Of a stretch of DNA of 64,000 nucleotides, positions 214 to 45,500 are shown in pieces; positions within the stretch are counted from its first letter, which is position 1, and each line of letters begins with the position of its first letter. The notes under the pieces are model-generated. The model saw nothing but the letters and a program-made list of their open reading frames with translations, did not search any database and was not told the DNA's origin. This stretch comes from an uncultured Bacillales bacterium (GTDB lineage Bacteria > Bacillota_I > Bacilli_A > RFN20 > CAG-826): contig CAMOEI010000001.1 in the NCBI GenBank assembly GCA_946612115.1, forward strand, positions 130,936 to 194,935, in the 5' to 3' direction. Both the position numbers and the translations under genes were made by a program.

Positions 214-1380
214 ATGTGTAGAATAAAACACATGGAAAATGAAGAAAAAAAGCAAAAGCCTGTTTTAGATTTCTTAATCAAGACTCTTAACGGGATGGCG
301 TATGGCTTATTCGCTACTTTGATTATCGGAACAATCTTTGAAACGATTGGAACTTTATTTAATTATGGAAGTGGTAACGCCTTTTGTGATTTCATGGTTA
401 AAGTCTTTGGAACCGGAAAAAGTGGAATTAGTTTTGTTTTACAAGTCTTAACCGGAGCAGGAATTGGAGTAGGAATTGCTTTATCTTTAAAATTTGATCC
501 ACTTAAAACTATTGTTTTAGCGGGTGTAGGAATGACCGCGGCGTATTTCTCTTTGACCACTAAATTTGTGGAGAATATGTCAAGTGAAACCTACTTAGGT
601 TCGTTTGCTTTAAAAATCGGAGATCCTTTAACAATATATTTAGTGTGTATTTCGGTGGCTCTATTAATGAAAATCGTCTTAGTCAAGAAAACACCCGTCG
701 ATATTTTAATCGTTCCTCTATTCGGCCTTTTTGTCGGTTTAATCGCTAGTTTTGCTTTAGGATTTGTCTCCATTTTCATTACTTATGCGATTCAGTGGCT
801 AGTTAACGCTGGTACAAGTGCTGTTCCATTTGTGATGGGAATAGTGGTTGCTATTTTAATGGGAATGGCACTAACCGCCCCAATTAGTAGTGCAGCAATT
901 GCTGCAATGGTATTTACTATTCCAGTTGGAGCAGATTTAGCAAACTATCAAGGATTAATTATCGCCAGTGGAGCTGCGATTGTTGGCTGTTCAACTCAAA
1001 TGGTCGGATTTGCTATTCAATCAAGAAAAGATAATAACATTGGAATGTGTCTATCAATTGGTATTGGAACATCAATGCTTCAATTTAAAAATATCCTAAA
1101 GAAACCTTTGGTTTGGTTACCTACAATTATTGCTTCCGCCATCTTAGGACCTATTAGCACAATGTGGCTTAAACTTGAATGCTTAGGTAGTGCAGCAGGA
1201 ATGGGAACAGCGGGCTTAGTTGGTCAAATCGGAACAATTGCCTCTATGGGAGTCGATAAATGGCAAACCTGGGTTGGAATATTTGGATTACAAATCATCC
1301 TTCCAATGGTGTTAGTTTTTGCACTAGATTTATTATTTAGAAAATTAGGGTGGATTAAAGAAGGAGATTTAAAAGTCTAA
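214..1380 (+). CDS. polytopic membrane permease, PTS-EIIC-like (PF13303-type) family; function uncertain
   Basis: 388-aa ORF with about 10 hydrophobic Gly/Ala-rich helices and no soluble domain. Its stop overlaps the next ORF (TAATG). Confidence 0.45.
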   Translation: MCRIKHMENEEKKQKPVLDFLIKTLNGMAYGLFATLIIGTIFETIGTLFNYGSGNAFCDFMVKVFGTGKSGISFVLQVLTGAGIGVGIALSLKFDPLKTIVLAGVGMTAAYFSLTTKFVENMSSETYLGSFALKIGDPLTIYLVCISVALLMKIVLVKKTPVDILIVPLFGLFVGLIASFALGFVSIFITYAIQWLVNAGTSAVPFVMGIVVAILMGMALTAPISSAAIAAMVFTIPVGADLANYQGLIIASGAAIVGCSTQMVGFAIQSRKDNNIGMCLSIGIGTSMLQFKNILKKPLVWLPTIIASAILGPISTMWLKLECLGSAAGMGTAGLVGQIGTIASMGVDKWQTWVGIFGLQIILPMVLVFALDLLFRKLGWIKEGDLKV

Positions 1381-1856
1381 TGAAAAAGAAGATGTCAAAT
1401 GAAACAAAAATCAAACTCATCTATTCTGGCGAATTAGTGGTTATCGCTTTAATTATCCTTGTGATTTCAATTTTAAAATTTACTGGTGTGATGCCCACTA
1501 AGCAAACTAGACTTTTAGTCTACAATATTATTTCTTTAATCGGATTTGTGTGGATTGTCGTGGACTTTGTTTGGTCTATCGCCTCTAAAAAAAGAAGACA
1601 AAAGACATGCTTTTTAGATAAATTCTTAATGCTACCAGCAGGATTATACATCTTATTTTTTGATATAATGTGTTTTGCAAAATTCTTTACATATGAAGAG
1701 GCCATTGTTCAATATTCCATAGCTGGAATTTTGATGTATTTAGCGGTTATTGAACTCTTTATGGCGGTTTATCACTGGTTTAAACCAGTGCCTCAAATTC
1801 TAGAAGCGATAGAAGAGGCTAATAAGCCAGAAGAAAATATCGATCAAAAAATATAA
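1380..1856 (+). CDS. small integral membrane protein (4 TM), unknown function
   Basis: 158-aa hydrophobic ORF, translationally coupled (TAATG) to the upstream permease. Confidence 0.4.
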   Translation: MKKKMSNETKIKLIYSGELVVIALIILVISILKFTGVMPTKQTRLLVYNIISLIGFVWIVVDFVWSIASKKRRQKTCFLDKFLMLPAGLYILFFDIMCFAKFFTYEEAIVQYSIAGILMYLAVIELFMAVYHWFKPVPQILEAIEEANKPEENIDQKI

Positions 1857-1893: not shown

Positions 1894-1922
1894 AAGGGAC
1901 AGGTATCTGTCCTTTTATTTTA
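1894..1922 (+). terminator. rho-independent terminator
   Basis: gggacag-gtatc-ctgtcc hairpin followed by ttttatttt. Confidence 0.55.
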
Positions 1923-2009
1923 TAACTCCACATTTTTTTAATTTAATTAATGAAATAATTAAGAAAGTTGACTAAAATTATAACTAAGAAAGAAGGACAT
2001 AATAACTAT

Positions 2010-3470
2010 ATGGCAAATTTGAAAGAAAGAATTTGTATTATTGGTGGTGGACCAGCTGGTCTTTCTGCTGCGATGTATCTTGAGAAAAAAGGATACGAAA
2101 ACTATGTTATTTATGAAAAATTAAACAAAGTTGGCGGAAAATGTTGGTCTCCAAAAATGAAGGTCAAACATAATGGTGTCGAAGAAGAAAAGAGTTTCGA
2201 AACCGGTGCGATTATGGGCGCCATTACCTATCACGCAGTTAGCGAGATGGAAGAATTTGGTGGCTATTATCACTGTGGACCACAATGGGCTGAAAAAGAG
2301 CCTAACATGAGAAGAGAATTCCGTACATTAGATGGTAAAGTCGATGAATGGAATAATCCAAAAGTTGATTTTAGCTTCAAAAAACTCTTTGGTTTATTAA
2401 AACTTAAGAAACAAATGAAGAAACTCAACAAGATCATGCAAACCAAATATAAAGGTTATGACTGCTATGGTCACTTAGGTGTTGCTAAAGGTGAATATTA
2501 TGGTATCTCCAAAGGTGTCGATGGATATTGCGGAGCAACCAAAGAAGATTCATTCCCTAACTACATCAAAGGAACAAACCCAAATCTTAAAGATTTAGCA
2601 TTACCATTCTCTGAATTCTGTAAGATTAACGGTGTTGAAGAAGTCCAAAGAATTTGGATCGCTCCATTCACCAGCTTCGGATATGGTTATTTCGATGAAA
2701 TCCCAGCCGCATTAGTCATGAAATATCTTGACGTTACTACCGCGATTGAATTCGTTCACATGGGATTATGGACATGGCCAGAAGGAACTCAACAAATCTA
2801 CGTTCACGTTAACGAAAAATTAAAACACCCAGCAGTGTTAGAAACTGAAGTCGTTAAAGTTGAAAGACCTGATGGAAAGATTAAAGTCACCATCAAAGGT
2901 AAAGACGGAAAGACCAAGGTTGAAGAATTCGATAAATTAATCGTTACTACCCCACTTGATTACTTCAAGGATTATGCGGACGCTAGCGATGAAGAAAAAG
3001 AATTATTCTCCAAGATCGTTCACGAAAGATATATTGACTATATCGCTACCTTCGAAGAAGGTAAATCACCAAATATTTCTGGTTACTTAGTGGAAAACAT
3101 GGTCCCAGAAAGATTAGGCCACGCGATGGTTTATTACAATAGATGGCAATATCTTGATAGAGACTGCCCAGCTACTGTTTACGCCTTAGCTAACCACACT
3201 GGAGATCCAGACAAGAAATATGAAGATGTCCAAAAGATGATGGACGAAGATATGGCCAGAGTCGGCTTCCCAATCAAAGAAAAACACTTTGCTCAAGAAG
3301 TTTATTACTGCCCACACGTTTCTTGTAAGGATTACGCTGAAGGATGGTATGACCGCCTCGAAGCTTTACAAGGTTATAAGAACACCTATTACGCTGGAGA
3401 AATTCTCTCCTTCGGTGATATGGAAGATACTTGTGCCGCTAGTAAAGATATCATCGGTAGATTCTTCTAA
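2010..3470 (+). CDS. FAD/NAD(P)-binding flavoprotein of the amine-oxidase / protoporphyrinogen-oxidase / phytoene-desaturase superfamily
   Basis: N-terminal Rossmann dinucleotide motif ICIIGGGPAGLSAAMYLEKKGY...EKLNKVGGK. About 490 aa. The ORF-track start at 1968 is a TTG; the first ATG (2010) is preferred. First gene of the candidate glycoside-ester module. Confidence 0.6.
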   Translation: MANLKERICIIGGGPAGLSAAMYLEKKGYENYVIYEKLNKVGGKCWSPKMKVKHNGVEEEKSFETGAIMGAITYHAVSEMEEFGGYYHCGPQWAEKEPNMRREFRTLDGKVDEWNNPKVDFSFKKLFGLLKLKKQMKKLNKIMQTKYKGYDCYGHLGVAKGEYYGISKGVDGYCGATKEDSFPNYIKGTNPNLKDLALPFSEFCKINGVEEVQRIWIAPFTSFGYGYFDEIPAALVMKYLDVTTAIEFVHMGLWTWPEGTQQIYVHVNEKLKHPAVLETEVVKVERPDGKIKVTIKGKDGKTKVEEFDKLIVTTPLDYFKDYADASDEEKELFSKIVHERYIDYIATFEEGKSPNISGYLVENMVPERLGHAMVYYNRWQYLDRDCPATVYALANHTGDPDKKYEDVQKMMDEDMARVGFPIKEKHFAQEVYYCPHVSCKDYAEGWYDRLEALQGYKNTYYAGEILSFGDMEDTCAASKDIIGRFF

Positions 3471-3486
3471 GAATAATCAAATAACT

Positions 3487-3512
3487 AAGCCCTCACTAGA
3501 GGGCTTTTTTAT
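3487..3512 (+). terminator. rho-independent terminator
   Basis: agccctc-acta-gagggct hairpin followed by tttttatttttc. Confidence 0.6.
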
Positions 3513-3578
3513 TTTTCTACAAAACTTTACAAATATTATTATTTATATATAATAAATAGACTATAGGAGGAAAATACA

Positions 3579-5447
3579 TTGAATAACTCTAGTGCTGTTA
3601 AACCAAAACAAAAAGTAGCAAATTCTAAAATAAAAGTTCCAGTGTTCTTCACTGTTGATGATAACTATATTCCTTTTATGACAATCACCTTAAAAAGTAT
3701 TGTCGATCACTCAAAGAAAAACATCATATACGAAATCTATGTCATTCATAGCGGACTTTCCGTTGAAAGTAAAAGAAGAGTCAAAGCGGTCACCAATAAG
3801 AAAAACTTTGTTTTTCATTTTGTTAACGTCTTCTTAAAAGTTCAAAATCTAGCGATTAGATTAGATGTTAGAGATTATTACACATCTTCAACATATTATC
3901 GTTTATTCTTGCCAGATTTATTCCCGCAAATCTCTAAAGCGATTTATATCGATAGTGATATCGTTGTTAGAGAAGATATCGCTAATTTATTTAATATCGA
4001 TTTAGAAGATAAATTATTAGGCGTTGTTCCTGATGGATCAGTCCAAATTTATCCTGAATTTATCAAATATGTTGAAACTGTTATCGCAGTTGACCACAAA
4101 GAATACTTTAACGCTGGGGTTTTATTAATGAACTTTAAAGGCCTAAGAGCGTTTAAATTTGAACAAAAATGTTTCAAATTGCTCTCTAAAGTCTCCTTCA
4201 AAGTAGCTCAAGACCAAGATATTTTAAACTTCATTACCAAGGGTAAAGTTAAATTTATAGACCCTAGATGGAACGTTATGCCTTTAGGAGAAAAAGTCGA
4301 AGATCCATATCTAGTTCACTATAATTTAATCCTTAAGCCTTGGAAACATGAAAATATCATGTATGAAGAATATTTCTGGGACGTCGCTGAAAAGCTCAAT
4401 CTCAAATATGAACTTTATGGAAGAATGATGCTCATCCCTAAAGAATTAAAAGAACAAGATTTCTTAGGAATTGAAATGGTCAAAAAGCTCTGTTTAGCGG
4501 AAGTAGAAAAAGTCGATACATATTACGCACCTATATATTCGCAAAAAGATATTATTGAAAGAAGAAATAGACAAAATTTATTTGAAGAATTGTCTTTCAA
4601 GAATATGAATTACCCACATCACGGGGAACGTCAAGCAATCTTAGATAAGATTGTGGAATATGAAAAGGCTGGCAAATTCGATCAAGATGTCGAAAATGAT
4701 CCACCATATAAACCAATTACTGTAGAAGGAATTGATTTCTTAAGAAAGAAACCACATAACAAATTTAAAAGTGCATTCGCTAATTGGTATTCCTTTAAAT
4801 ATTTCAATCATTTAATCGATAAAGGACAAATCATTATTGATGGCTATGAAGGAGTTCATAACTTAAAAGAAGTGACCACAGGAGCGGTTATTACTGCGAA
4901 TCACTTCTCCCCATTTGATAGCATTCCTTTACACAAGATCTTTAAGCAAGTTAAAAAGAATCGTAAACTCTTTAAAATTATTCGTGAAGGAAATTATTCC
5001 TTCCCAGGACTTTACGGTTTCTTTATGAGAAACTGTAACTCCATCCCTTTAGCGAGCAATTTAGAAGTTATGAGACATACTTTAAATGCGATTGACACGG
5101 TTTTATCTCGTGGGGATTATTTACTCGTTTACGCTGAACAATCGATGTGGTGGAATTATAAAAAACCAAAACCAACCAAATTAGGAGCCTTTAAGTGGGC
5201 TAGTAAAAATAATGTTCCTGTCATTCCTACTTTTATTACGATGAGAGATACAGGTGCTTTAGACGGAGAAGGATTCCCAATTAAAGCTTATACTTTACAT
5301 ATTCTTCCTGCCATTTATCCAAAAAGTAACCTTTCTATTGGAGAAAACGCTTTATATTTAAAGTCGGAAAACGATAAGGCTTGGAAAGAAGTCTATGAAC
5401 GAGTGTATGGAGAAAAACTTACATATCTATGTAATGAGGACAAATAA
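3579..5447 (+). CDS. bifunctional glycosyltransferase family 8 (N-terminal) / lysophospholipid-type acyltransferase (PlsC/LPLAT, C-terminal) fusion protein
   Basis: N-terminal domain has GT8 hallmarks: VFFTVDDNYIPF, the DxD motif YIDSDIVV, and NAGVLLMN. C-terminal domain carries the LPLAT HX4D motif (ITANHFSPFD) and FPGLYGFF/ VYAEQS motifs. TTG start at 3579 with AGGAGG 8 nt upstream. Stop overlaps the next gene (TAATG). Confidence 0.65.
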   Translation: MNNSSAVKPKQKVANSKIKVPVFFTVDDNYIPFMTITLKSIVDHSKKNIIYEIYVIHSGLSVESKRRVKAVTNKKNFVFHFVNVFLKVQNLAIRLDVRDYYTSSTYYRLFLPDLFPQISKAIYIDSDIVVREDIANLFNIDLEDKLLGVVPDGSVQIYPEFIKYVETVIAVDHKEYFNAGVLLMNFKGLRAFKFEQKCFKLLSKVSFKVAQDQDILNFITKGKVKFIDPRWNVMPLGEKVEDPYLVHYNLILKPWKHENIMYEEYFWDVAEKLNLKYELYGRMMLIPKELKEQDFLGIEMVKKLCLAEVEKVDTYYAPIYSQKDIIERRNRQNLFEELSFKNMNYPHHGERQAILDKIVEYEKAGKFDQDVENDPPYKPITVEGIDFLRKKPHNKFKSAFANWYSFKYFNHLIDKGQIIIDGYEGVHNLKEVTTGAVITANHFSPFDSIPLHKIFKQVKKNRKLFKIIREGNYSFPGLYGFFMRNCNSIPLASNLEVMRHTLNAIDTVLSRGDYLLVYAEQSMWWNYKKPKPTKLGAFKWASKNNVPVIPTFITMRDTGALDGEGFPIKAYTLHILPAIYPKSNLSIGENALYLKSENDKAWKEVYERVYGEKLTYLCNEDK

Positions 5448-6067
5448 TGTACTTTTTAGCAATTATTTTAATTTGTAGTTTTATAATCTATCTCCCTCAT
5501 GCGATTATCAATCCATGGAACTTACCTAATCCGTGGTTATATTATTTTCTCGCAGTGGCCATCTACGTTATTGGAGAAGTTATTTTAGACGGAGTTATCG
5601 CTTTTATTATTCGTCGACTCCCAGAGAAGTGGATGAATCCAAGAAAAGGGATGATTCATGCCAGCGATAAAGAACTTAAGTTCTTAAAAGCTATTAAAGT
5701 CGAGAGTTGGAAGCGTTTCATGCCTGATTTAGGAATGTTTACCAAATTCCAAAAAGGAAAATTAGATGATCCATATAATAACGAATATATTCATCGTTAT
5801 ATTGTTGAAGCTAGTTATGGGGTAGTGATCCATTATTTAAGCGTTCCATTCGGCTTTTTGATTCTTTTACTCGGATTAATCGAACCAAATAACTTGACGA
5901 CGTGGTCAATAGGTTTACCAGTTATCTTTGTTAACTCAGTCTTGATTCTCGCCCCGGCGTTAACATTAAAATATAACATTCCTCGTCTATTAAGGATTTA
6001 TGACCTTAATGAACGATTAAAAGCGAAAAAAGAGGCTAAATTAGCTAAAGAAAACGAAAATAAATAA
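5447..6067 (+). CDS. 4-TM membrane protein resembling the CrtO family (glycosyl-4,4'-diaponeurosporenoate acyltransferase)
   Basis: 206 aa with four hydrophobic helices. Cytoplasmic loop W..R..PDLG and C-terminal KYNIPRLLRI resemble the S. aureus CrtO motifs W.HKILDG and QRYNRPRLTQLLRI; this comparison is from memory, not a computed alignment. Translationally coupled to the GT8/LPLAT gene. Confidence 0.45.
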   Translation: MYFLAIILICSFIIYLPHAIINPWNLPNPWLYYFLAVAIYVIGEVILDGVIAFIIRRLPEKWMNPRKGMIHASDKELKFLKAIKVESWKRFMPDLGMFTKFQKGKLDDPYNNEYIHRYIVEASYGVVIHYLSVPFGFLILLLGLIEPNNLTTWSIGLPVIFVNSVLILAPALTLKYNIPRLLRIYDLNERLKAKKEAKLAKENENK

Positions 6068-6078
6068 TTAGACAAAAG

Positions 6079-6120
6079 AAATGGATGTAAAGAGAAATTA
6101 ACATTCATTTTTTTCTTTTT
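6079..6120 (+). terminator. rho-independent terminator
   Basis: aaatggatgt ... acattcattt hairpin followed by a long T-run. Confidence 0.5.
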
Positions 6121-6189: not shown

Positions 6190-7827
6190 ATGACTATTGC
6201 AGAAAAAATTGTTCATTTAAGAGTTGTTAATAATATTTCTCAAGAAGAACTCGCAACTAAACTTAACGTTACTAGACAAACAGTCAGTAAGTGGGAAAGC
6301 GGAGACACTCTTCCTCAATTAGATAAAGTTAGCGAACTTTGTGAATTATTTAAAATAACCGCTGATGAATTAATTAACGATAATGTTGTTATCCATCGCG
6401 GAAAGCAACTAGTGCCAAGCATTGGAGAAGATGTGAAAACCAAATATTTTGGCACTGATGGCTTTAGAGGAGAGGTCAATAAAGTATTAACTTGTGACCA
6501 CGCCTATAAAATCGGTCGATTCTTAGGATGGTTTTACGGAAATCCAAAATATAACGGACAAAAACCAGGATATCGACCAAAGGTTGTTATCGGTAAAGAT
6601 ACCAGAAGATCTTCATATATGTTAGAGTATGCGGTCGCTAGTGGATTAGCGGCTAGTGGAGCGGATGTCTGTTTACTTCACGTAACGACTACACCAAGCG
6701 TTTCTTACATAGTAAGACAAGACTATTTTGACTGCGGAGTAATGATTACCGCAAGCCACAATCCTTTCTATGATAACGGAATTAAAGTTATTAACTGTAA
6801 CGGAGAGAAATTAGAAGACGCAGTTGCAGTATTAATCGAAGCCTATATTGACGGAGATTTAAAGAAATTAGGTGTTGAAGGAGATGACCTCCCATTCGCG
6901 GAAAGAGGAGAAATCGGTCAAATCATCGATTATAGCTCCGGAAGAAATCGATACATTGGTTATCTCATCTCATTAGCAAAACACTCCATGAAGAGCCTAA
7001 AAATCGGCTTAGACTGCGCTAACGGGGCGAGCTGGATGATTGCCAAAAGTGTTTTTGACGCTTTAGGAGCCCAAACCTTTGTTATTAATAACAATCCAGA
7101 TGGTTTAAATATTAATTTAGATGCTGGAAGTACACATATTGAAAATTTCTGTAAATACGTTAAACAAAATAAACTAGATCTCGGCTTTGCCTTTGACGGA
7201 GACGCTGATAGATGTATCGCTGTAGATGAATCTGGTAGAGAAGTTGATGGAGATAAGATTATGTACTTATTATCCAATAAACTTAAAGCGGAAGGCTCAT
7301 TAGACAAAGACACATTAGTAACGACAATTATGTCTAACTCAGGTCTATTTAAAGCCTTAAAACAAGTTGGGATTTCTGTCACACAAACTAAGGTTGGAGA
7401 CCGTTTCGTTTACGAAAGAATGCAAAATGAAGGCTATGCCTTAGGTGGAGAGCAATCCGGTCACATTATCATTAAAAAGTATGCGACTACTGGAGATGGC
7501 ATCTTAACTGCGATTATGGTCACTGAAGAAGTATTAGAAAGAAAAGCAAAGCTTTCAACTTTAGTTGCCCCAGTTAAGCTCATCCCACAAGTCACTAAAA
7601 ACGTTAGAGTGACTAATAAGGCTGCAGTTATCGCTGATGAACTTGTTCAAGCTAAATTTAAAGAAGTGAATGATGAAATCGGAGATAATGGAAGAGCGTT
7701 ATTAAGACAAAGTGGAACTGAACCAGTTGTTAGAATAACAATTGAATTAGATAATAAAGCCAAAGTTGATGAATATGTCGAAAAGATTTATAACGTCATC
7801 AAGAAAAGAGGATATATCTGTGAATAA
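6190..7827 (+). CDS. glmM: phosphoglucosamine mutase with an N-terminal XRE-type helix-turn-helix domain (HTH::GlmM fusion)
   Basis: Residues 1-63 form a classic HTH_3 (ISQEELATKLNVTRQTVSKWESGDTLPQLDKVSEL). From about residue 85 the sequence is GlmM: KYFGTDGFRGEVN, the active-site serine loop ITASHNPFYDNGIK, DGDADRC, and GGEQSGH. Single uninterrupted ORF. Confidence 0.8.
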   Translation: MTIAEKIVHLRVVNNISQEELATKLNVTRQTVSKWESGDTLPQLDKVSELCELFKITADELINDNVVIHRGKQLVPSIGEDVKTKYFGTDGFRGEVNKVLTCDHAYKIGRFLGWFYGNPKYNGQKPGYRPKVVIGKDTRRSSYMLEYAVASGLAASGADVCLLHVTTTPSVSYIVRQDYFDCGVMITASHNPFYDNGIKVINCNGEKLEDAVAVLIEAYIDGDLKKLGVEGDDLPFAERGEIGQIIDYSSGRNRYIGYLISLAKHSMKSLKIGLDCANGASWMIAKSVFDALGAQTFVINNNPDGLNINLDAGSTHIENFCKYVKQNKLDLGFAFDGDADRCIAVDESGREVDGDKIMYLLSNKLKAEGSLDKDTLVTTIMSNSGLFKALKQVGISVTQTKVGDRFVYERMQNEGYALGGEQSGHIIIKKYATTGDGILTAIMVTEEVLERKAKLSTLVAPVKLIPQVTKNVRVTNKAAVIADELVQAKFKEVNDEIGDNGRALLRQSGTEPVVRITIELDNKAKVDEYVEKIYNVIKKRGYICE

Positions 7828-8494
7828 GTTAAATATTAAAACTTCTGAATTATTTCACACTGAAGAAACCTATTTAAGAGAAGTCTTCAATAATTCGACT
7901 TATCCTTGGGAAATTCTCCCTCAAATCAAAGAGATTTGTAAAAGAGTCCTAGAAAGTGGTTTACCAGGGTATCACCTTCTAAAAGAAGGAGTGTTAGTAG
8001 GAGAAAACGTTAAAATCTCTCCTTTCGCCACAATTGAACCGCCTTGCATCATCGGAAAAGACACTGAACTTCGTCCAGGAGCGTTTATTAGAGGAAATGT
8101 CATCATTGGAGAAAGCTGTGTCATCGGTAATTCAAGCGAATTAAAAAATTCAATATTATTGAATCACGTCCAAGTTCCACATTATAACTATGTTGGAGAT
8201 TCAATCTTAGGAGATTACGCTCATATGGGAGCGGGATCAATTCTCTCAAATTTAAAAAGTGGAGGTAAAAACATTACCATTCACGGAGATAAAGAATATG
8301 AGACTGGTTTAAGAAAAATCGGAGCGTTCCTTGGAGAACACGCTGATATTGGATGCGGAAGCGTTCTTAATCCAGGAACCATCATTGGTAAAAACACCAA
8401 TGTCTATCCATTAAGTATGTTAAGAGGGTGCTATCCAGAAAATAGCATCGTCAAAGAAAACAACAAAGTTGTTGATAAAGATTTAAATCGATAA
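7820..8494 (+). CDS. stand-alone left-handed beta-helix (hexapeptide-repeat) acetyltransferase, GlmU C-terminal-domain-like
   Basis: Hexapeptide repeats throughout (IIGKDTELRPGAFIRGNVIIGESCVIGNSSEL...). The likely start is the GTG at 7820 with a GAGGA RBS, overlapping the glmM stop; the ORF track extends the frame back to 7766. Confidence 0.55.
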   Translation: MNKLNIKTSELFHTEETYLREVFNNSTYPWEILPQIKEICKRVLESGLPGYHLLKEGVLVGENVKISPFATIEPPCIIGKDTELRPGAFIRGNVIIGESCVIGNSSELKNSILLNHVQVPHYNYVGDSILGDYAHMGAGSILSNLKSGGKNITIHGDKEYETGLRKIGAFLGEHADIGCGSVLNPGTIIGKNTNVYPLSMLRGCYPENSIVKENNKVVDKDLNR

Positions 8495-8510: not shown

Positions 8511-9233
8511 ATGAAAGTAGTTGTCGGCACAAATGAAGAGATCAGCAAGCAAATTGCTGAAGAATTTATCAAACAAGTTCAAAAGAAACCAAATTCAGTT
8601 TTAGGTTTAGCCACAGGAACATCCCCATTACAAGTCTACGCAAATCTGGTCGAGGCTAATAAAAGTGGAAGAGTTTCCTTTAAAGATGTTGTGACATTTA
8701 ATCTAGATGAATATATCGGATTAGAAGGAACACACAATCAATCTTATCGATATTTCATGAATGAAAATTTATTCAATCACATCGATATCGATAAATCTAA
8801 GACCCATGTTTTAAAAGGTGTTGGTGATTATTTGGATTACGCTAATAAATACGATGATTTAATCGCTTCCTTTGGCGGAATTGATTTACAAATCCTTGGT
8901 ATTGGTAGTGATGGACATATCGCTTTTAATGAACCAGGCACCTCATTTGATAGTCTTACTCACGTTGCCGATTTAGCGGAATCAACTATTGTTGATAACT
9001 CTAGATTATTCAATGATATCTCAGAAGTTCCTACTAAAGCAGTGACCATGGGATTAAAAAGCATTATGAATGCGAAAAAGATTGTCTTGATCGCTACTGG
9101 TAAAAACAAAGCTAAAGCCATTAAAGAATTATTAACTGGCGATAAGAGCGAAGAAAATCCTGCTAGTGTTCTTATCGATCATCCAGATGTCACCATCTAC
9201 GTCGATAAAGATGCTTATAGTTTAGTTAAATAA
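8511..9233 (+). CDS. nagB: glucosamine-6-phosphate deaminase
   Basis: MKVVVGTNEEISKQIAEEF...LGLATGTSPL...ILGIGSDGHIAFNEPGTSF is the canonical NagB/6-phosphogluconolactonase fold. RBS GGAGG upstream. Confidence 0.85.
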   Translation: MKVVVGTNEEISKQIAEEFIKQVQKKPNSVLGLATGTSPLQVYANLVEANKSGRVSFKDVVTFNLDEYIGLEGTHNQSYRYFMNENLFNHIDIDKSKTHVLKGVGDYLDYANKYDDLIASFGGIDLQILGIGSDGHIAFNEPGTSFDSLTHVADLAESTIVDNSRLFNDISEVPTKAVTMGLKSIMNAKKIVLIATGKNKAKAIKELLTGDKSEENPASVLIDHPDVTIYVDKDAYSLVK

Positions 9234-11059: not shown

Positions 11060-11872
11060 ATGATTGTTGAACTTTGCGTCATTCTTATCGACTTACTTTT
11101 TACAACTTTAATTACCTTATTTTGTATTCCAGTAGGTCGTGGATATCACTATTTCGCCCCATTTTTACTTTTGATTGCCGGCTATATCGTCGGAATGATT
11201 ATTATGTGGTGCGTTTTAAGCGCCTTCACTTTAGTGGTCTCTAAAAAGAAGAAATACGTAAAGCCGATGAAATGGGCAAATTTCTGGCTTACTGAAGCGA
11301 TTAGTTATATCGACATCCATTCAGGAGCAAGGATGAAGATCACTTATAAAGAACCTCTTCCTAATGAGAGATATTTATTAGTCTGTAATCATTTATCTAA
11401 ATTCGATCCGATGCTATTAACAAAAGTTTATGGCCATAAAGGTTTATCCTTTATCTCTAAACCAACAAACTTCAAAATCCCAATCGGAGGAAGATTTATG
11501 AGAGGGGCTTGCTATTTATCAATCGATAGATTTGATAAGCTCCAATCATTAACGGTTATGAATGATGCAGCGGAGTTAATTAAAAATAATTACACCTCCG
11601 TTGGAGTCTTCCCAGAAGGAACTAGATCTTTAGATGGTTCTTTAGGTCAATTCCATGAAGGAGTCTTCCAAATCGCTAAAAAAGCGAATTGTCCAATCGT
11701 CATTGTGACAATAAGTGGAACGGAAAACATTCATAAGAATTTCCCATTTAAACCAACAAAAGTAAACTTAGTTATTCATAAAGTTTTATATCCAAATGAA
11801 CATAATGTCATGATTGCTAAACAGATTAGTGATTACGCAAGAAACATTATGTTTGAGGAATTAAAGAAATAG
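11060..11872 (+). CDS. plsC: 1-acyl-sn-glycerol-3-phosphate acyltransferase (LPLAT), membrane-anchored
   Basis: N-terminal TM helices, then the HX4D motif (CNHLSKFD), FPEGTRS and a proline motif. Confidence 0.75.
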   Translation: MIVELCVILIDLLFTTLITLFCIPVGRGYHYFAPFLLLIAGYIVGMIIMWCVLSAFTLVVSKKKKYVKPMKWANFWLTEAISYIDIHSGARMKITYKEPLPNERYLLVCNHLSKFDPMLLTKVYGHKGLSFISKPTNFKIPIGGRFMRGACYLSIDRFDKLQSLTVMNDAAELIKNNYTSVGVFPEGTRSLDGSLGQFHEGVFQIAKKANCPIVIVTISGTENIHKNFPFKPTKVNLVIHKVLYPNEHNVMIAKQISDYARNIMFEELKK

Positions 11873-13582: not shown

Positions 13583-15421
13583 ATGGAAACATTCTCTAAA
13601 GACGAGACAACTTTTAAAGATGAGGCTTTATTAGAACCATTAGATTTTTATAAGTCTCAACTAAAAGACGCTTTTCACGATAACGCGGAAGAATATTTTG
13701 ATAAACTCACAAAAAAATCAAAGATTGATGTCGAAGCTAATCGACTTGCTTGTAAAAAATATTACGAAGAATGTAAGTCAGTTGATTCTTTGAAAAAAGA
13801 TAAAAGTGGAAAAGTTGGTTTAAAGGCTCTATTTATCGTCTTTCTCGTCTTTTTAGCGATAGCGATAACTATTATCATTACCTTGACATTTACTAATCCA
13901 GGATTACTCCATTTAGCGGTTTCTATCGCAGTTCCTATAGGAGCGGCGGGATTAATCGCTTTATGTATTGTTGGTATTGTTAAACAAAACAAATTAATTT
14001 CAGGATTAAATGAAGAAATCGATAAACATAACGGAATTGCTAGCAAATGCAAAGATGAGGCAAGCCAATTAATCGCAGGATTAAATAGACTCTTTGAGTC
14101 TAATATGGCGGTTCATCTCATGTCTAAAACCACTCCAGTCGTGGATTTAGATCAAGATTTTGATCCGGAGAAATATTCCTATTTACACGAAAAATATGGT
14201 TATGAAACATCTAATAGAAAAGATGAATCCATTCTTTTTGTTCAATCAGGTCATATCTTAGGCAACCCTTTCATCATCGAAAGAGTCTATAACCAAAACA
14301 TGGTTAATCATGTCTACACTGGCACTTTAACTATTTCATGGACTGAAAGAGTGAGCAACGGAAAAGGTGGCTATACAACTGTAGTGAGAACACAGACATT
14401 AACCGCTCATGTGACCGCACCTTTACCAAATTATTGGACGAGCACGAGATTAATTTTTGGTAGTGAAGCCGCTCCTAGATTATCTTTTTCTAGACATCCT
14501 ACTGGGCACGGAAATGACGATGATAAAGCCTTAGAAAGATACGTTAAGAAATTCGATAAGGAATTAGATAAAAAAGTCGCGAAAGATTTAAAAGATGGAA
14601 ATGCCTCTTTTACGAGATTATATAACGAAACATTTGAAGCTTTATTTAACGCTCTAGATAGAGATAATGAAACTGAGTTTAGACTTCTTTTCACCCCTCT
14701 TGCTCAAAAGAATATGATTAATCTAATTAGAGATGTTGATAATATCGGTTATGGTGATGACTTCTCTTTTATAAAGAGAAAAGAGCTTAATTATATCAAC
14801 GCAAGTCATTTAAACGCTTCAAAAACGCTTGATTATGGACCTGAAAATATCCGCCATTTTGACTATGATATCGTTCGCTCTAATTTTATTAATTACTGCG
14901 ATACATATTGCAAGGAAATCTATTTCGCTTTAGCCCCGTTAATTTGCATTCCGTTATATCAACAACATAAAACTAGAGAATATATTTATAACGGACAATT
15001 TGGTCATAATATTACTCAAGCCGAAGCTGAAAGCGCGGCTAATAAACATAGTTGGAATTTATTTAAACATCCGGCAACTAGAAGTTTAGGTGTTATCTTA
15101 AAGAGTCGATTTGAAAAGGTAAACGAAACAGTGGATGAATGTATCATTACCGCTCATTCATTTTCAGGCACTGATCGAGTGACTTATGTTTCGGTTTATG
15201 GAGGAGATGGACATTATCATCAAGTTCCTGTTCACTGGGTGGAATATAATCCAATCAGTCAAGATACTTGCTTTGCTATAGGTAGAGCAAAAGAAGATAA
15301 TTATGTCGACTTCTCCGATAAATATACCGCTGGAGATTATAATAAATTATTATCTCGCTACAATATTCAAGATACTGTATTATATAGAAAAGGGTTATAT
15401 TCTTTCGTTAAGAAAGATTAA
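13583..15421 (+). CDS. large membrane protein of unknown function (soluble N-term, 2 TM at about aa 80-135, 470-aa C-terminal domain); LemA-associated
   Basis: 612-aa ORF with strong hydrophobic hairpin ALFIVFLVFLAIAITIIITL...AVSIAVPIGAAGLIALCIVGIV. No domain recognised by eye. Directly upstream of lemA with a 32-nt gap. Confidence 0.5.
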   Translation: METFSKDETTFKDEALLEPLDFYKSQLKDAFHDNAEEYFDKLTKKSKIDVEANRLACKKYYEECKSVDSLKKDKSGKVGLKALFIVFLVFLAIAITIIITLTFTNPGLLHLAVSIAVPIGAAGLIALCIVGIVKQNKLISGLNEEIDKHNGIASKCKDEASQLIAGLNRLFESNMAVHLMSKTTPVVDLDQDFDPEKYSYLHEKYGYETSNRKDESILFVQSGHILGNPFIIERVYNQNMVNHVYTGTLTISWTERVSNGKGGYTTVVRTQTLTAHVTAPLPNYWTSTRLIFGSEAAPRLSFSRHPTGHGNDDDKALERYVKKFDKELDKKVAKDLKDGNASFTRLYNETFEALFNALDRDNETEFRLLFTPLAQKNMINLIRDVDNIGYGDDFSFIKRKELNYINASHLNASKTLDYGPENIRHFDYDIVRSNFINYCDTYCKEIYFALAPLICIPLYQQHKTREYIYNGQFGHNITQAEAESAANKHSWNLFKHPATRSLGVILKSRFEKVNETVDECIITAHSFSGTDRVTYVSVYGGDGHYHQVPVHWVEYNPISQDTCFAIGRAKEDNYVDFSDKYTAGDYNKLLSRYNIQDTVLYRKGLYSFVKKD

Positions 15422-16754: not shown

Positions 16755-17987
16755 ATGGGAACTCCATTAGCGGAATTAATTAGACCTTCATCACTAGATG
16801 AAATGGTGGGACAAGAACACTTATTCAATAAGAATAGTTTATTTAGAAAGATGATTTCTAAAAACATTATTCCGAATATGATTTTTTATGGTCCTCCTGG
16901 AGTGGGCAAGACTACAGTCGCTAATATAATCGCCAAAAACACTGAGATGTTACTTTGTAAACTTAACGGAACCACCGCAAGTTTAGACGATGTTAAAAAA
17001 GTGATTGATGAATCAAAAAGTGTTTTCGCAGGTAAGGGAGTTTTACTTTATTTAGATGAAATCCAATACTTCAATAAAAAGCAGCAGCAATCTTTATTAG
17101 AGTACGTTGAAAAAGGACTAATTACCTTAATTGCTTCAACAACTGAAAACCCATATTTTTATATCTATCCCGCTTTATTATCTAGATGTAATGTTTTTGA
17201 ATTTAAAGCGATTACCACAAAAGATATCAAAAAAGGATTAAAAAGAATTGTTGAATTAGAGAAAATCAAGATTGATGAGGATGCTTTAGACTTATTAAGT
17301 CTATCTTCTAATGGAGATATGAGAAAAGCGGTCAACAATCTAGAATTTGTTCATAACGCTTTAGGAAGTAAACAAATTAGAAAAGTGGACGTTGACCAAA
17401 TAGTGGATAAAGCCCATATCGTCTACGATAAAAGCGAAGATAAACATTATGATCATTTAAGTGCACTAATGAAATCCTTAAGAGGAAGCGATCCAGATGC
17501 AGCGATTTTCTATATGGCCAAGATGCTTGAAGCAGGCGATTTACAAGCGGTTTGTAGAAGAATATTATGCTCAGTAAATGAAGATGTTGGTTTAGCCTAC
17601 CCTTCATTAATTCCAATCGTCAAGTCTTGCGTTGATACCGCCCTTCAACTTGGAATGCCAGAAGCTAAACTTCCTTTAAGTAATGCCGTTATTTTAATTG
17701 CTACTGCACCAAAAAGTAATAGCGCGTATCTAGCCTATGCTAAAGCGGTTGAAGACATTAATATGGGTAAAGGAGTAGGAGTGCCTAGACAACTTCAAAA
17801 CACCCACTTCGACGGGGAAGATGCTTTAGTGAAAGGTCAAAATTATTTATATCCTCATGACTATAAGAATCACTGGGTCAAACAACAATATTTGCCAGAT
17901 GATGTTAAAGATAGACATTATTACCTTTATGGTAATAACAAATTTGAACAAGCTTTAAAAGAATATTGGGAAAAGATTAAGAAATAA
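16755..17987 (+). CDS. rarA: replication-associated recombination protein A (AAA+ ATPase RarA/MgsA)
   Basis: PLAELIRPSSLDEMVGQEHL, Walker A GPPGVGKTT, and C-terminal MgsA helical domains. The ORF-track TTG at 16719 lies inside the terminator stem, so ATG 16755 is preferred. Confidence 0.8.
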   Translation: MGTPLAELIRPSSLDEMVGQEHLFNKNSLFRKMISKNIIPNMIFYGPPGVGKTTVANIIAKNTEMLLCKLNGTTASLDDVKKVIDESKSVFAGKGVLLYLDEIQYFNKKQQQSLLEYVEKGLITLIASTTENPYFYIYPALLSRCNVFEFKAITTKDIKKGLKRIVELEKIKIDEDALDLLSLSSNGDMRKAVNNLEFVHNALGSKQIRKVDVDQIVDKAHIVYDKSEDKHYDHLSALMKSLRGSDPDAAIFYMAKMLEAGDLQAVCRRILCSVNEDVGLAYPSLIPIVKSCVDTALQLGMPEAKLPLSNAVILIATAPKSNSAYLAYAKAVEDINMGKGVGVPRQLQNTHFDGEDALVKGQNYLYPHDYKNHWVKQQYLPDDVKDRHYYLYGNNKFEQALKEYWEKIKK

Positions 17988-18892
17988 TGGATAGTTTAAA
18001 AAGTTTACTCGATCAAAAGAAATATGATTTAGTGCTTACCTTAACTGAAGGTAGCAAATCTCCAAATGACTTATTTTATCGAATAAGCGCTTTTATCTAT
18101 TTAGGTAAATATGAAGATGCTTTATATGTCATTCAAGATAATCAATCAATATTAGAGACAAATCTAGTAAGCTTAATTTCCGCTCATATCAATTTACTTT
18201 GCATCTTAGGAAGATTCGAACAAGCTTATAGCACCCTGGATTATTACAATAACCTACCTTATCAGTCTCAAGCCGTGGAAGAAATCTTAAGAAAAATGCC
18301 TCAAGTCATCGCTTTAGAAGAAAAGAAAAATTCTCAAGTTAAATATTACGATGATGAACAAGTTGAACAAATGCTCTCAAGCAATATCAGTGAAGACGTC
18401 CTTCTCGGATTAGATATTGTTAGAAAAAGAGATGTTTTATCTTTCCTCCCATTTTTAGAAAAAGTGATGCTTAATTTTCCTAAGCAATCAATTAGAAACT
18501 ACACCTTGATGCTTTTAGTGCAAAAAGAAGTCGATCGAAATATCAAAATTCTTCATCAGGGAGAAATTATTGAAGTAAATCCTAAATTATTAACTGCTCC
18601 ATTTACCTCGATTACATTTAATGAAGTAATTCGTAATTTTGACCGTGAGTTTAAAGATCCAACATTATCTCAAACCGCCACACAATTATTTTCAGAATAT
18701 TCCTTATATCTATATCCTCGAGACTATAAATACACCGCAAACGAATTAACTGGCATCTTTTATCTCATCGCCAAAGAATATATTAACGATCCAGTATTCG
18801 AGTTAGAAGATTACTGTGATACTAATGGTTTAGATATCTATAAGATATCTAGTGCGATTAAGGAAATTAAAGATATCATCGAAGATTTCTAA
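17987..18892 (+). CDS. hypothetical soluble protein (301 aa), translationally coupled to rarA
   Basis: ATG overlaps the rarA stop (TAATGG). Helical, TPR-like N-terminal region. No recognisable motif. Confidence 0.5.
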   Translation: MDSLKSLLDQKKYDLVLTLTEGSKSPNDLFYRISAFIYLGKYEDALYVIQDNQSILETNLVSLISAHINLLCILGRFEQAYSTLDYYNNLPYQSQAVEEILRKMPQVIALEEKKNSQVKYYDDEQVEQMLSSNISEDVLLGLDIVRKRDVLSFLPFLEKVMLNFPKQSIRNYTLMLLVQKEVDRNIKILHQGEIIEVNPKLLTAPFTSITFNEVIRNFDREFKDPTLSQTATQLFSEYSLYLYPRDYKYTANELTGIFYLIAKEYINDPVFELEDYCDTNGLDIYKISSAIKEIKDIIEDF

Positions 18893-23218: not shown

Positions 23219-23254
23219 TGTAGATATTTATTATTTTTTTAGTATAATAAATGC

Positions 23255-23458
23255 GTTCGATGAATTAGAGGAGTAATCAAAACTTCTTCTTATAGAGAGC
23301 TAGGGACGGTGGAAGCCTAGTAGAAAGGTTTGATGAAGGTCGCTAAGGAGAACTGATTCTAATAATTTAGAGTAATGAAGTGCTAGTGAAATATCACTAG
23401 AACTAAGGTGGTACCACGTTAATCGCGTCCTTAGAAATAAGGACTTTTATTTTATTTA
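23255..23458 (+). promoter_or_regulatory. T-box riboswitch leader of valS (promoter -10 TATAAT at 23243-23248; T-box sequence; terminator/antiterminator)
   Basis: Conserved T-box sequence aactaAGGTGGTACCACGtt at 23399-23417. Intrinsic terminator gtcctta-gaaa-taaggac plus T-run at 23426-23455. A GTC (Val) codon at about 23339 in the putative specifier region. Lies in the 250-nt untranslated gap before valS. Confidence 0.7.
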
Positions 23459-27084: not shown

Positions 27085-27215
27085 TAATTATATCTTATGA
27101 TATATTACTTTCGTTGTCGCCTCACTAGCTACAACCGCATAGAAGAGGTTTTCAAAACTTTAACGAAGTTACCTTCATAGCGAGTCCTTAGTGAAATCTC
27201 AAAAAAGGAGGGACA
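27085..27215 (+). promoter_or_regulatory. candidate ribosomal-protein L21 leader (autoregulatory 5' UTR of the rplU-prp-rpmA operon)
   Basis: About 130-nt structured untranslated region immediately upstream of rplU. An L21 leader occupies this position in Bacillota. Not verified against a covariance model. Confidence 0.35.
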
Positions 27216-45302: not shown

Positions 45303-45500
45303 ATGGAAAAAGAATTTGATTTTGAAAAAGAACTCAACCGATTAAAAGACATCGTTAACAAAATCCAAAATAGTGATGTCTCTTTAGATGAGAGTTTAAA
45401 ACTATACGAAGAAGGCAATAAAATTATTGTCGAGTTAACAGAAGAGCTTAAAAAAGCAGAAGACAAAGTCGAAAAAGTCATTGAGGCTAATAAAAAATAA
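45303..45500 (+). CDS. xseB: exodeoxyribonuclease VII small subunit
   Basis: 65-aa helical protein FEKELNRLKDIVNKIQNSDVSLDESLKLYEEG. Confidence 0.8.
   Translation: MEKEFDFEKELNRLKDIVNKIQNSDVSLDESLKLYEEGNKIIVELTEELKKAEDKVEKVIEANKK

Follow-up and report, generated by a model that had tools for sequence, protein, structure and literature searches.

The window analysed here is a stretch of 64,000 nucleotides from an uncultured Bacillales bacterium. The interval under study contains three consecutive open reading frames on the + strand (Table 1), just as an earlier note on this DNA had described; its reading frames, domains, motifs, TAATG overlap and dxs gene all stand, but its single terminator-bounded unit of three genes does not. 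The 5′ bound of gene 1 is the terminator of the upstream gene. In the gap between genes 1 and 2 a strong intrinsic terminator, for which none of 200 shuffled sequences gave an equally good fold, is followed by a near-consensus promoter, and gene 2 then has its own ribosome-binding site (AGGAGG, 3565-3570) and a TTG start codon at 3579. The terminator and promoter thus make gene 1 monocistronic, with genes 2 and 3 as a separate bicistronic operon, so that the interval is two independent units. The A+T-rich hairpin beyond gene 3 was not called by the consensus terminator scan; it is the probable terminator of the operon.

Table 1. Features of the interval and of related genes in the window.
Feature	Position	Strand	Evidence or context
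Upstream gene, 158-aa 4-TM protein	1380-1856		5′ of gene 1
Intrinsic terminator of upstream gene	1894-1915	+	Terminator scan; fold -13.4 kcal/mol, z -2.8
Gene 1, FAD-dependent polyunsaturated fatty-acid isomerase homologue, 486 aa	2010-3470	+	Match to PDB 2B9W
Strong intrinsic terminator, then T run, in gene 1/gene 2 gap	3487-3506	+	-16.9 kcal/mol, z -6.0
Sigma-70-type promoter-like site, TTTACA-16-TATAAT	3526-3553	+	11/12 consensus matches
Gene 2, GT8 glycosyltransferase::PlsC-type acyltransferase fusion, 622 aa, no TM segment	3579-5447	+	
GT8 domain, aa 22-257	3642-4349	+	Pfam Glyco_transf_8, 9.4e-48
Acyltransferase module, ~aa 349-622	4623-5444	+	Pfam Acyltransferase PF01553, 2.7e-11, core aa 426-553
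Gene 3, CrtO-family 4-TM membrane protein, 206 aa	5447-6067	+	Pfam CrtO; AF2; conserved residues
Weak A+T-rich hairpin, then U run	~6075-6114	+	-11.9 kcal/mol, z -2.2
PlsC gene	11060-11872		Housekeeping
dxs	45500-47347		In nusB-xseA context
PlsY gene	61192-61953		Housekeeping

Gene 1 matches the Pfam family Amino_oxidase (1.7e-12) and aligns over its full length, in two stretches, with the polyunsaturated fatty-acid isomerase (PAI) of P. acnes (PDB 2B9W, E 1.6e-104). Its homologues are found in MAGs of Clostridia and Bacilli with identities of 66-87%, and because nearly all are 485-486 aa in length the true start is the ATG at 2010, within the open reading frame that runs from 1968. The protein groups with PAI, and not with protoporphyrinogen or putrescine oxidases. 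The PAI residues R88, F168 and F193 (2B9W numbering), which we take to be those that bind the substrate, are conserved in the alignment. Gene 1 is the longer of the two by ~60 aa and carries insertions at query aa 45-52 and 158-193; it also differs from PAI in its source, a rumen/gut Firmicute. Judged by its sequence, the product is most likely a soluble FAD enzyme that isomerizes a double bond in free polyunsaturated fatty acids (e.g. linoleate); PAI is itself described as a soluble monomer containing FAD (PMC2885616).

The copies of gene 1 with 83-87% identity are solitary and lie in unrelated neighbourhoods. At the closest loci of the cassette formed by genes 2 and 3 (L002 and L003) the upstream 4-TM gene directly abuts the fusion, with no gene 1 between them. 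The earlier note had assigned the flavoprotein a role as desaturase/oxidase partner to the other two genes; being a PAI homologue that is transcribed separately and is absent from 80/80 related loci, it does not have that role, and gene 1 lies outside the glycolipid cassette.

This bears on the first of two product classes previously offered, in which the three genes would be a staphyloxanthin-like module making a carotenoid glycoside ester by desaturation or oxidation, glycosylation and finally CrtO acylation. Gene 1 is, broadly speaking, a member of the amine-oxidase/phytoene-desaturase superfamily, gene 3 has a Pfam CrtO match over threshold, and dxs is present in the window as claimed. However, the crtI family model gives gene 1 a score of 20 bits against a cut-off of 238, and dxs, 40 kb distant, has a housekeeping context. 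No SQS_PSY, crtM- or crtN-type gene was found within the 64-kb window, and no such carotenoid gene adjoins the cassette at any locus. The flanks of 79/80 related loci lack an amine-oxidase-type flavoprotein, the other (L066) having one Rossmann-only match, while the Pfam-annotated neighbours on seven contigs with distant CrtO-like genes include no carotenoid family. The hosts of the cassette, moreover, are gut and rumen anaerobes. A carotenoid module is extremely improbable, and already largely refuted. What survives of the earlier interpretation is the pairing of the GT8::acyltransferase fusion with the CrtO-like protein and its second option, a lipid-type glycoside ester, which is the most reasonable reading; the product of genes 2 and 3 is most probably an acylated membrane glycolipid.

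The union of a GT8 glycosyltransferase with a PlsC-type HX4D acyltransferase in one polypeptide is borne out for gene 2 by Pfam and by the motifs present. The GT8 DxD motif is D125-S-D127 (nt 3951-3959), with a second motif H247..KPW255, and the HX4D motif of the acyltransferase is H442-F-S-P-F-D447 (nt 4902-4919), with further conserved blocks EGN (470-472), YAEQS (518-522) and PVIP (547-550). DxD, H..KPW and HX4D are invariant, which makes catalysis plausible. The NCBIfam PlsC model scores 26.6 bits on the acyltransferase domain, far under its cut-off of 103, and structure comparison places PatA on top, barely ahead of GPAT and PlsC. The domain is distinguished from all three by a conserved N-terminal extension (ER..IL.KI..E..GKFD.DVENDPP), by its fusion to GT8 and by the lack of any match in a PDB sequence search with its profile.

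The nearest structures to the GT8 domain are LPS/O-antigen and protein glycosyltransferases (cf. LgtC, WbbM and GlyE), and the nearest NCBIfam model is an LPS galactosyltransferase, far under its cut-off. These matches would suit a module that decorates a non-lipid acceptor, where GT8 would act on a surface glycan, a teichoic-acid-type polymer or a protein, and the acyltransferases would modify the polymer or its anchor. LgtC and the WbbM C-terminal domain are retaining GT8 galactosyltransferases with LPS or O-antigen glycans as substrates; the GT8 domain studied here occurs in Gram-positive lineages, fused with or coupled to lipid acyltransferases. Against a non-lipid acceptor, the PlsC/GPAT superfamily moves long acyl chains onto glycerol- or lipid-type acceptors, and to our knowledge the O-acylation of polysaccharides uses other families. 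As partner the module has either a CrtO-type lipid acyltransferase or a lipid-flippase-like protein, its neighbours vary, and 0/81 loci lie within a polysaccharide or Wzx/Wzy-type locus. We therefore regard a non-lipid acceptor as quite improbable.

The resemblance of gene 3 to CrtO holds at the level of the HMM: Pfam CrtO (PF18927) scores 51.4 bits (1.6e-13; cut-off 27.3), with a match that spans 1-121 of the 123 profile positions, so that all three proteins are matched by HMM (Amino_oxidase; Glyco_transf_8 with PF01553; CrtO). The first ~58 residues, including two TM helices, lie outside this model. Both motifs noted earlier were located, WKRFMPDLG at aa 88-96 and KYNIPRLLRI at aa 175-184, and their key residues are conserved. 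The 4-TM topology agrees with four hydrophobic segments and with four TM helices in the AF2 model (pLDDT 89). Across CrtO-like sequences that are 22-39% identical to gene 3, K103 (nt 5753-5755) and H129 (nt 5831-5833) are invariant and E121 (nt 5807-5809) is nearly so. Lysine and arginine are abundant in the conserved loop and in the C-terminal tail, both of which should therefore be cytoplasmic; by the positive-inside rule K103, H129 and E121 should thus lie on the side of the membrane where the TM-less fusion must act. A search of solved structures for a relative of gene 3 found none.

The TAATG overlap at the gene 2/gene 3 junction is present in the sequence, consistent with translational coupling, and at 17/17 loci the CrtO-like gene lies 3′ of the fusion at a spacing of -4 to +4 nt. 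With the CrtO-like protein as starting point, a search found 37 loci (31-70% identity). Wherever these reach the upstream gene, it is a PlsC-type acyltransferase (30/30), with HX4D in all 12 checked, and among those with 2 kb or more of upstream sequence all except one have GT8 before the acyltransferase. The linkage of GT8, acyltransferase and CrtO-like protein is obligate, and the fusion and the CrtO-like protein form a conserved, translationally coupled unit, in keeping with the coupling claimed earlier. At the loci found from the CrtO-like protein, GT8 and acyltransferase are for the most part encoded separately, as they are upstream of the distant CrtO-like genes (31-49% identity). Fused and split forms alternate in Clostridia, the split forms having normal stop codons, a ribosome-binding site and ATG. 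The fusion is not rare: whether fused or split, the GT8 and acyltransferase pair occurs in hundreds of genome stretches from Bacilli and Clostridia.

At ~55 clostridial loci the place of the CrtO-like gene is taken by a second acyltransferase (HX5D motif in 54/55) and a second GT8. Full flanks are available at 59 loci. Of these, 12 carry the CrtO-like gene alone, 45 the second acyltransferase and second GT8, two neither and none both; the CrtO-like gene and the second acyltransferase replace each other and are mutually exclusive. A flippase-like membrane protein (TIGR00374) is present at 15 of those 45 loci. Across architectures the acyltransferase-type components remain constant at two, with one or two GT8. 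Genes 2 and 3 are an uncharacterised pair kept across many genomes, and we found no published characterisation or biochemistry for any member of the cassette.

We propose, with a probability of roughly 0.45, that the operon (3526-6114), independent of gene 1, encodes by itself the whole pathway to a membrane lipid of the diacylated alpha-glycoside type, with three activities on two polypeptides. The retaining GT8 domain would use a UDP-sugar to attach a hexose to a small polyol, either glycerol or a C3 precursor. The fused PlsC/GPAT-superfamily acyltransferase would then attach a first fatty acid to give a lyso-glycolipid, and the CrtO-type protein would attach the second, its conserved His, Glu and Lys lying where the membrane meets the cytoplasm. 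That the product is a lipid is our inference, as are the acceptor and acyl donor, the sequence in which the steps follow one another and any catalytic role of gene 3. The presence of two acyltransferases in every architecture was counted in favour of this pathway, as were the separate housekeeping PlsC and PlsY genes that the organism has of its own (Table 1).

The order may be head-group first, by analogy with the proteobacterial SqdD/SqdA route of Rhodobacter and Sinorhizobium, likened here by description. SqdD (GT8, glycogenin-like) forms sulfoquinovosyl-glycerol, which SqdA acylates with acyl-ACP, the second acylation included, in a pathway reported as restricted to Alphaproteobacteria; HX5D is characteristic of SqdA, OlsF-N and SalA, which are lyso-lipid acyltransferases (bioRxiv 10.1101/2022.08.18.504050). 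The clostridial variant of the cassette shares the HX5D acyltransferase. Unlike the Sqd pathway, the cassette has an HX4D acyltransferase fused to GT8 and a CrtO-type membrane protein as second acyltransferase, and it lacks equivalents of sqdB and sqdC, so the sugar is not sulfoquinovose. It counts against the proposal that no SqdC-equivalent reductase or phosphatase is conserved in the cassette, so that the acceptor would have to be glycerol itself or some other compound.

S. aureus CrtO acylates a mono-acylated glucoside, adding a second acyl chain. Gene 3 is like it in its HMM match above threshold, as a small polytopic membrane protein and in having a glycosyltransferase neighbour, and by this analogy it probably acylates a lipid-linked glycoside. 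It differs in its ~200 aa with four TM helices and the N-terminal region outside the model, and in its partner, GT8 plus a PlsC-type acyltransferase in place of the GT2 CrtQ. The cassette loci also differ from S. aureus in having no crtM/N/P nearby and in their hosts, anaerobic gut and rumen Firmicutes. Three further points count against the proposed pathway: the acyltransferase in the window has HX4D and not the HX5D of SqdA; the second GT8 that co-varies with the second acyltransferase is only loosely accounted for; and the catalytic role of the CrtO type rests on Staphylococcus genetics, with no solved structural relative.

Acyl-glycosyl-diacylglycerols occur in Acholeplasma, lactobacilli and enterococci, and would be the product type if the module instead tailored an existing lipid, with GT8 acting on diacylglycerol or glycosyl-diacylglycerol and both acyltransferases esterifying sugar hydroxyls. 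The characterised member of the CrtO family acylates glucose at C6″, and PatA, which ranks first among the structural matches to the acyltransferase domain, acylates a mannose of a glycolipid, though its score is barely above those of GPAT and PlsC. DAG-kinase-type and PlsC genes adjoin the cassette in the window and at L002 and L003, and the flippase-like partner in Clostridia would suit any membrane glycolipid. We consider such tailoring somewhat unlikely, because the acyltransferase count is fixed at two while that of GT8 is one to two, because in the alternative architecture the second acyltransferase has the lyso-lipid HX5D motif, and because we know of no GT8 that uses diacylglycerol as acceptor.

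Genes 2 and 3, which encode a GT8::PlsC-type acyltransferase fusion of 622 aa and a CrtO-like protein of 206 aa, are a conserved module. The gene upstream, encoding a FAD flavoprotein (gene 1), has intrinsic terminators on both sides and gene 2 has a promoter of its own, so gene 1 is monocistronic and the other two make up a separate operon. An earlier note, made from the sequence alone, described the genes correctly in that the ORFs, the Pfam domains, the quoted motifs and the TAATG overlap between genes 2 and 3 are all present; its picture of one three-gene unit is contradicted by the strong terminator and the promoter that part gene 1 from genes 2 and 3. Gene 1 starts at ATG 2010 and encodes 486 aa, as do nearly all its homologues.

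Features of the window and of related loci (L handles; from other genomes and metagenomes)
Feature	Position	Strand	Remarks
Three ORFs (genes 1 to 3)	1968-6067	+	ORF calling
158-aa protein, four transmembrane (TM) helices, no Pfam family	1380-1856; L002 2603-3148; L003 9310-9933	+ (window)
Intrinsic terminator before gene 1	1894-1915
PAI-like gene (gene 1)	2010-3470; loci L082-L090		single genes
Strong intrinsic terminator between genes 1 and 2	3487-3506		-16.9 kcal/mol, z -6.0
Near-consensus promoter TTTACA-16-TATAAT	3526-3553		after the strong terminator; followed by AGGAGG site and TTG start of gene 2
Weak A+T-rich hairpin with U run	about 6075-6114		end of gene 2-gene 3 operon
Phosphoglucosamine mutase with HTH	6190-7827	+	TIGR01455 glmM, 492 bits (above cut-off); Cro/C1-type HTH_3 at aa 1-65
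242-aa left-handed beta-helix (hexapeptide) protein	7766-8494	+	overlaps glmM end by about 60 nt
nagB	8511-9233		next gene
Separate PlsC-type gene	11060-11872
Four ORFs without Pfam match at the thresholds used	13583-15421, 17987-18892, 32021-34720 (+); 51464-52417 (-)		612, 301, 899, 317 aa
T-box leader	23251-23435	+	Rfam; 5′ of class I tRNA-synthetase gene 23469-26057 (valS-like)
Ribosomal protein L21 leader	27123-27198	+	Rfam
dxs	45500-47347		nusB-xseA context
Clostridial variant	L017 7961-12572, and about 55 other Clostridia loci (L017-L081)		order: flippase-like TIGR00374/LPG_synthase_TM, GT8, GT8::acyltransferase (or split), HX5D second acyltransferase
Split GT8/acyltransferase	L019, L024, L027, L032, L034, L036-L039, L041, L042, L055, L064, L069, L070, L078
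Glyceraldehyde-3-phosphate dehydrogenase gene	L110 1886-2920; L116 1306-2337		directly 5′ of split triad
HTH ORFs adjoining cassette	L027 6574-7221; L076 646-1338	-	Clostridia loci
385-aa stop-to-stop frame	L123 146-1300		CrtO-like domain in C-terminal part only

The N-terminal part of gene 2 belongs to glycosyltransferase family 8 (Pfam Glyco_transf_8, 9.4e-48, aa 22-257), with DxD and H..KPW motifs and a GT-A fold. The C-terminal part is of the PlsC/LPLAT type (Acyltransferase PF01553, 2.7e-11, aa 426-553), with the HX4D catalytic motif, the conserved blocks and the fold. In an alignment of 26 members D125 and D127 (DxD) and H247..K253-P-W255 are invariant in the GT8 half, as are H442x4D447, E470-G-N, E520-Q-S and P547/P550 in the acyltransferase. 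The AF2 model (pLDDT 83) has a disordered linker at aa 332-347, and its C-terminal part superposes on PatA (14.2), GPAT1 (13.2), squash GPAT (13.1), PlsC (12.8), tafazzin and LpxM. The protein contains no hydrophobic segments. Source databases name it "1-acyl-sn-glycerol-3-phosphate acyltransferase" or "lipopolysaccharide biosynthesis glycosyltransferase"; against TIGR00530 (1-acyl-sn-glycerol-3-phosphate acyltransferase, PlsC proper) its acyltransferase scores 26.6 bits, the cut-off being 102.95, whereas the separate PlsC-type gene of the window reaches 82.1 bits, below the cut-off yet far above gene 2. There are at least 120 full-length homologues of the fusion (48-69% identity), and when species-representative genomes were scanned with it at least 600 stretches matched; 592 of the matches listed encode a relative.

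In about 18 Clostridia loci the two halves are parted by a single in-frame stop, the split form staying in the reading frame of the fused one. The final codons of the GT8 gene contain an AGGAGA-type ribosome-binding site, and an ATG follows a few codons on. Recoding or read-through of the stop was rejected, because every stop has such an upstream site and a downstream ATG, and TAA, TAG and TGA all occur; these are ordinary split genes.

A CrtO-like gene lies 3′ of the fusion in every Bacilli locus with downstream DNA and in locus L074, with a gap of -4 to +4 nt (17 of 17). The search from the CrtO side covered 37 loci, from seven contigs with 33-49%-identical homologues and 30 metagenome loci (31-69% identity). 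A PlsC-type acyltransferase gene is directly 5′ of the CrtO-like gene in all 30 that reach an upstream neighbour, with HX4D (NHFxxxD) in the 12 checked, and where 2 kb or more of upstream DNA is available a GT8 gene precedes it, with one exception. Here the GT8 and the acyltransferase are usually encoded by separate genes, so that the conserved entity is the GT8/acyltransferase/CrtO-like triad, of which the fusion is one form. The two are fused or adjacent in 81 of 81 loci, and in the informative CrtO-side loci. Neighbours beyond the cassette vary, and thus it behaves as a self-contained unit. The glyceraldehyde-3-phosphate dehydrogenase gene beside the split triad in two metagenome contigs may be coincidence or a tie to C3 metabolism.

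The assignment of gene 3 as CrtO-like was borne out by HMM search; it matches CrtO PF18927 at 51.4 bits (1.6e-13; gathering score 27.3) over profile positions 1-121 of 123, and cassette-linked relatives that are more distant reach 82-84 bits. The AF2 model (pLDDT 89) has four TM helices, and structure comparison found no solved structure resembling it. The long loop at aa 57-111 and the C-terminal tail contain 13 and 10 K+R respectively, so by the positive-inside rule both should be cytoplasmic. K103 and H129 are invariant in 50 family members that share only 22-39% identity with gene 3, and conservation in the same set reaches 90% or more at E76, W88, K89, G96, E121, Y176 and N177; this conservation in distant members suggests that gene 3 is an enzyme whose site, centred on His, lies at the cytoplasmic interface. 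We know of no solved structure or mechanism for the CrtO family. A profile of the gene 3 family, run against 1.84 billion representatives, gave 711 clusters, and the best 150 of the 711, inspected for domain fusions, are all single-domain and no longer than 286 aa (most 180-215), leaving no room for a second catalytic domain. In the frame at locus L123 the N-terminal ~230 aa do not match GT8 or acyltransferase profiles; it may represent another kind of fusion or be an artefact of assembly.

About 55 Clostridia loci without a CrtO-like gene have instead an extra GT8 gene upstream and an extra acyltransferase of ~260 aa downstream, with HX5D (NHTQxFAD) in 54 of 55 cases. At least 19 of them have a membrane protein in front that scores above the cut-off for LPG_synthase_TM and the "flippase-like" TIGR00374. 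Complete flanks are available for 59 loci, of which 45 carry the second acyltransferase and second GT8, 12 the CrtO-like gene only and two neither; the CrtO-like gene never occurs together with the second acyltransferase (0/59). NCBIfam gave no specific model for gene 3, the second acyltransferase or the second GT8.

Glycolipids, some of them immune ligands, are major membrane lipids and lipoteichoic-acid anchors in Firmicutes. A membrane glycolipid function of some kind is likely for the cassette (probability about 0.75). Beyond domain identity and gene linkage, we infer each of its steps. Its components would make a lipid at the cytoplasmic face of the membrane, by a UDP-sugar-dependent retaining transferase and two acyl-transfer components, with an optional lipid-flippase-like protein. 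The acyl-transfer components stay at two while GT8 numbers one or two, and the HX5D enzyme and CrtO-like protein are mutually exclusive; both facts fit two acylations of a glycosyl-glycerol, with the CrtO-like protein as putative lyso-glycolipid acyltransferase. S. aureus CrtO formally likewise adds a second acyl chain, onto a mono-acylated glucoside, in agreement with this step. A route that builds the head group first is a tentative choice, to which we give somewhat less than even odds. Its main rival, which we regard as rather unlikely, is that the cassette acylates sugar hydroxyls of a glycosyl-diacylglycerol; what is known of CrtO chemistry favours it, as does the narrow lead that PatA has in the structural comparison. 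Acylation of the 6-OH of a lipid-linked glucoside is a candidate reaction for gene 3; in its favour are K103 and H129, which are invariant, and the nearly invariant E121, all at the cytoplasmic interface.

Head-group-first synthesis has a proteobacterial parallel in sulfoquinovosyl-glycerol acylation, where SqdD (GT8, glycogenin-like) makes a glycosylated C3 head group and SqdA, an HX5D acyltransferase using acyl-ACP, performs the second acylation (bioRxiv 10.1101/2022.08.18.504050). The cassette GT8 is similarly coupled genetically to an acyltransferase, but that of the window is HX4D; HX5D is confined to the clostridial variant, and there to its second acyltransferase. On clustering the neighbouring ORFs no further family recurs with the cassette, as an associated sqdB (UDP-sulfoquinovose synthase) or sqdC (reductase) would. 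The cassette thus falls outside the SqdD/SqdA pathway and is only a possible analogue. It is a doubtful proposition that gut and rumen Firmicutes have a self-contained Gram-positive counterpart for membrane glycolipids (GT8, then PlsC-type, then second acyltransferase, head group first) in which CrtO-type four-TM proteins would be general lyso-glycolipid acyltransferases whose His/Glu/Lys active site sits at the membrane interface, the staphyloxanthin role being a specialised offshoot.

In known glycolipid routes diacylglycerol is glycosylated by GT4, GT28 or GT2 enzymes; C. difficile UgtA and UgtB are characterised clostridial examples, identified via similarity to known glycolipid glycosyltransferases, and the paper describing them mentions neither GT8 nor an acyltransferase (PMC11898633). 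In the literature searched there is no characterisation of GT8-acyltransferase (PlsC) fusions, of PF18927 or cassette-linked CrtO-like proteins or of Lachnospiraceae glycolipid acyltransferases. On this basis we class the cassette as a probable variant of bacterial glycolipid biosynthesis, widespread and testable. Conservation of a GT8 and acyltransferase cassette across hundreds of uncultured Bacilli and Clostridia from gut and rumen would point to an unrecognised lipid or route and, if true, the CrtO family would gain a function outside carotenoid pigments.

Tailoring of a carotenoid by genes 1 to 3, one option of the earlier note, is by contrast very improbable. No SQS_PSY or CrtN/CrtI-type gene was found among the scanned window ORFs, and gene 3 has no crtM/crtN/crtP/crtQ association there of the kind in the staphyloxanthin operon. 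Against the phytoene desaturase (CrtI-CrtN) family TIGR02734 gene 1 scores 20.2 bits, the cut-off being 238.1, and only its Rossmann N-terminus is matched. With gene 1 as probe, 79 of 80 related loci have no amine-oxidase-type flavoprotein, and the other (L066) has one Rossmann-only match. The Pfam-annotated neighbours in the seven contigs with distant CrtO-like genes include no carotenoid family; all the informative loci have GT8 and PlsC-type genes as neighbours. The dxs gene, taken as a hint of carotenoids, is indeed present in the window, but in a housekeeping context. Nor does the flavoprotein belong to the module as had been proposed, a gene 1 homologue occurring in none of the 80 loci around fusion relatives.

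Gene 1 matches Pfam Amino_oxidase (1.7e-12). Among all PDB sequences 2B9W is the best match (E 1.6e-104, full length, two stretches covering aa 6-486) and the next best is at 4e-07. R88, F168 and F193 of the P. acnes polyunsaturated fatty-acid isomerase (PAI) are aligned and identical in gene 1; we take them to be substrate-binding or substrate-gate residues, roles reportedly described by Liavonchanka in 2006. PAI (2B9W) is a soluble FAD-containing monomer that converts linoleate to trans-10,cis-12 CLA (PMC2885616). By sequence, gene 1 is a fatty-acid isomerase homologue outside the module. In L002 and L003, from the closest relatives of the window, a gene for a 158-aa membrane protein is followed directly by the fusion. 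Three gene 1 homologues with 83-87% identity lie in unrelated surroundings (cobW/HypA and PEPCK in one genome set, Big_2 surface proteins in another) and never adjoin GT8, acyltransferase or CrtO genes. A functional role for gene 1 as supplier of modified fatty acids to the cassette enzymes was rejected, there being no co-occurrence with the cassette. In the window the 158-aa protein gene sits 5′ of the inserted gene 1.

There are more than 1100 homologues of gene 1, and those with 80-87% identity, from MAGs and in differing neighbourhoods, carry both "Clostridia bacterium" and "Bacilli bacterium" labels. Between the same two classes the fusion is only about 42% identical, and the difference suggests recent horizontal spread of gene 1-like genes among gut and rumen bacteria. 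The PAI-like genes are candidates for trans-10,cis-12 CLA formation in the rumen, where cultured strains forming it are scarce (PMC11770317); a gene nearly identical across Clostridia and Bacilli MAGs points to candidate CLA-forming organisms.

No tRNA genes were found in the 64-kb window. Both the window and L002 have an amino-sugar gene cluster directly 3′ of the cassette. In the window its hexapeptide protein is similar to GlmU in the C-terminal acetyltransferase half alone and lacks the nucleotidyltransferase domain. The fusion of a DNA-binding domain to GlmM is unusual; the 545-aa protein is found full-length also in L002 and, divergent beside the cassette, in L013. The ORFs adjoining the cassette in L027 and L076 are similar to it only in the N-terminal XRE-type HTH, and may be regulators.
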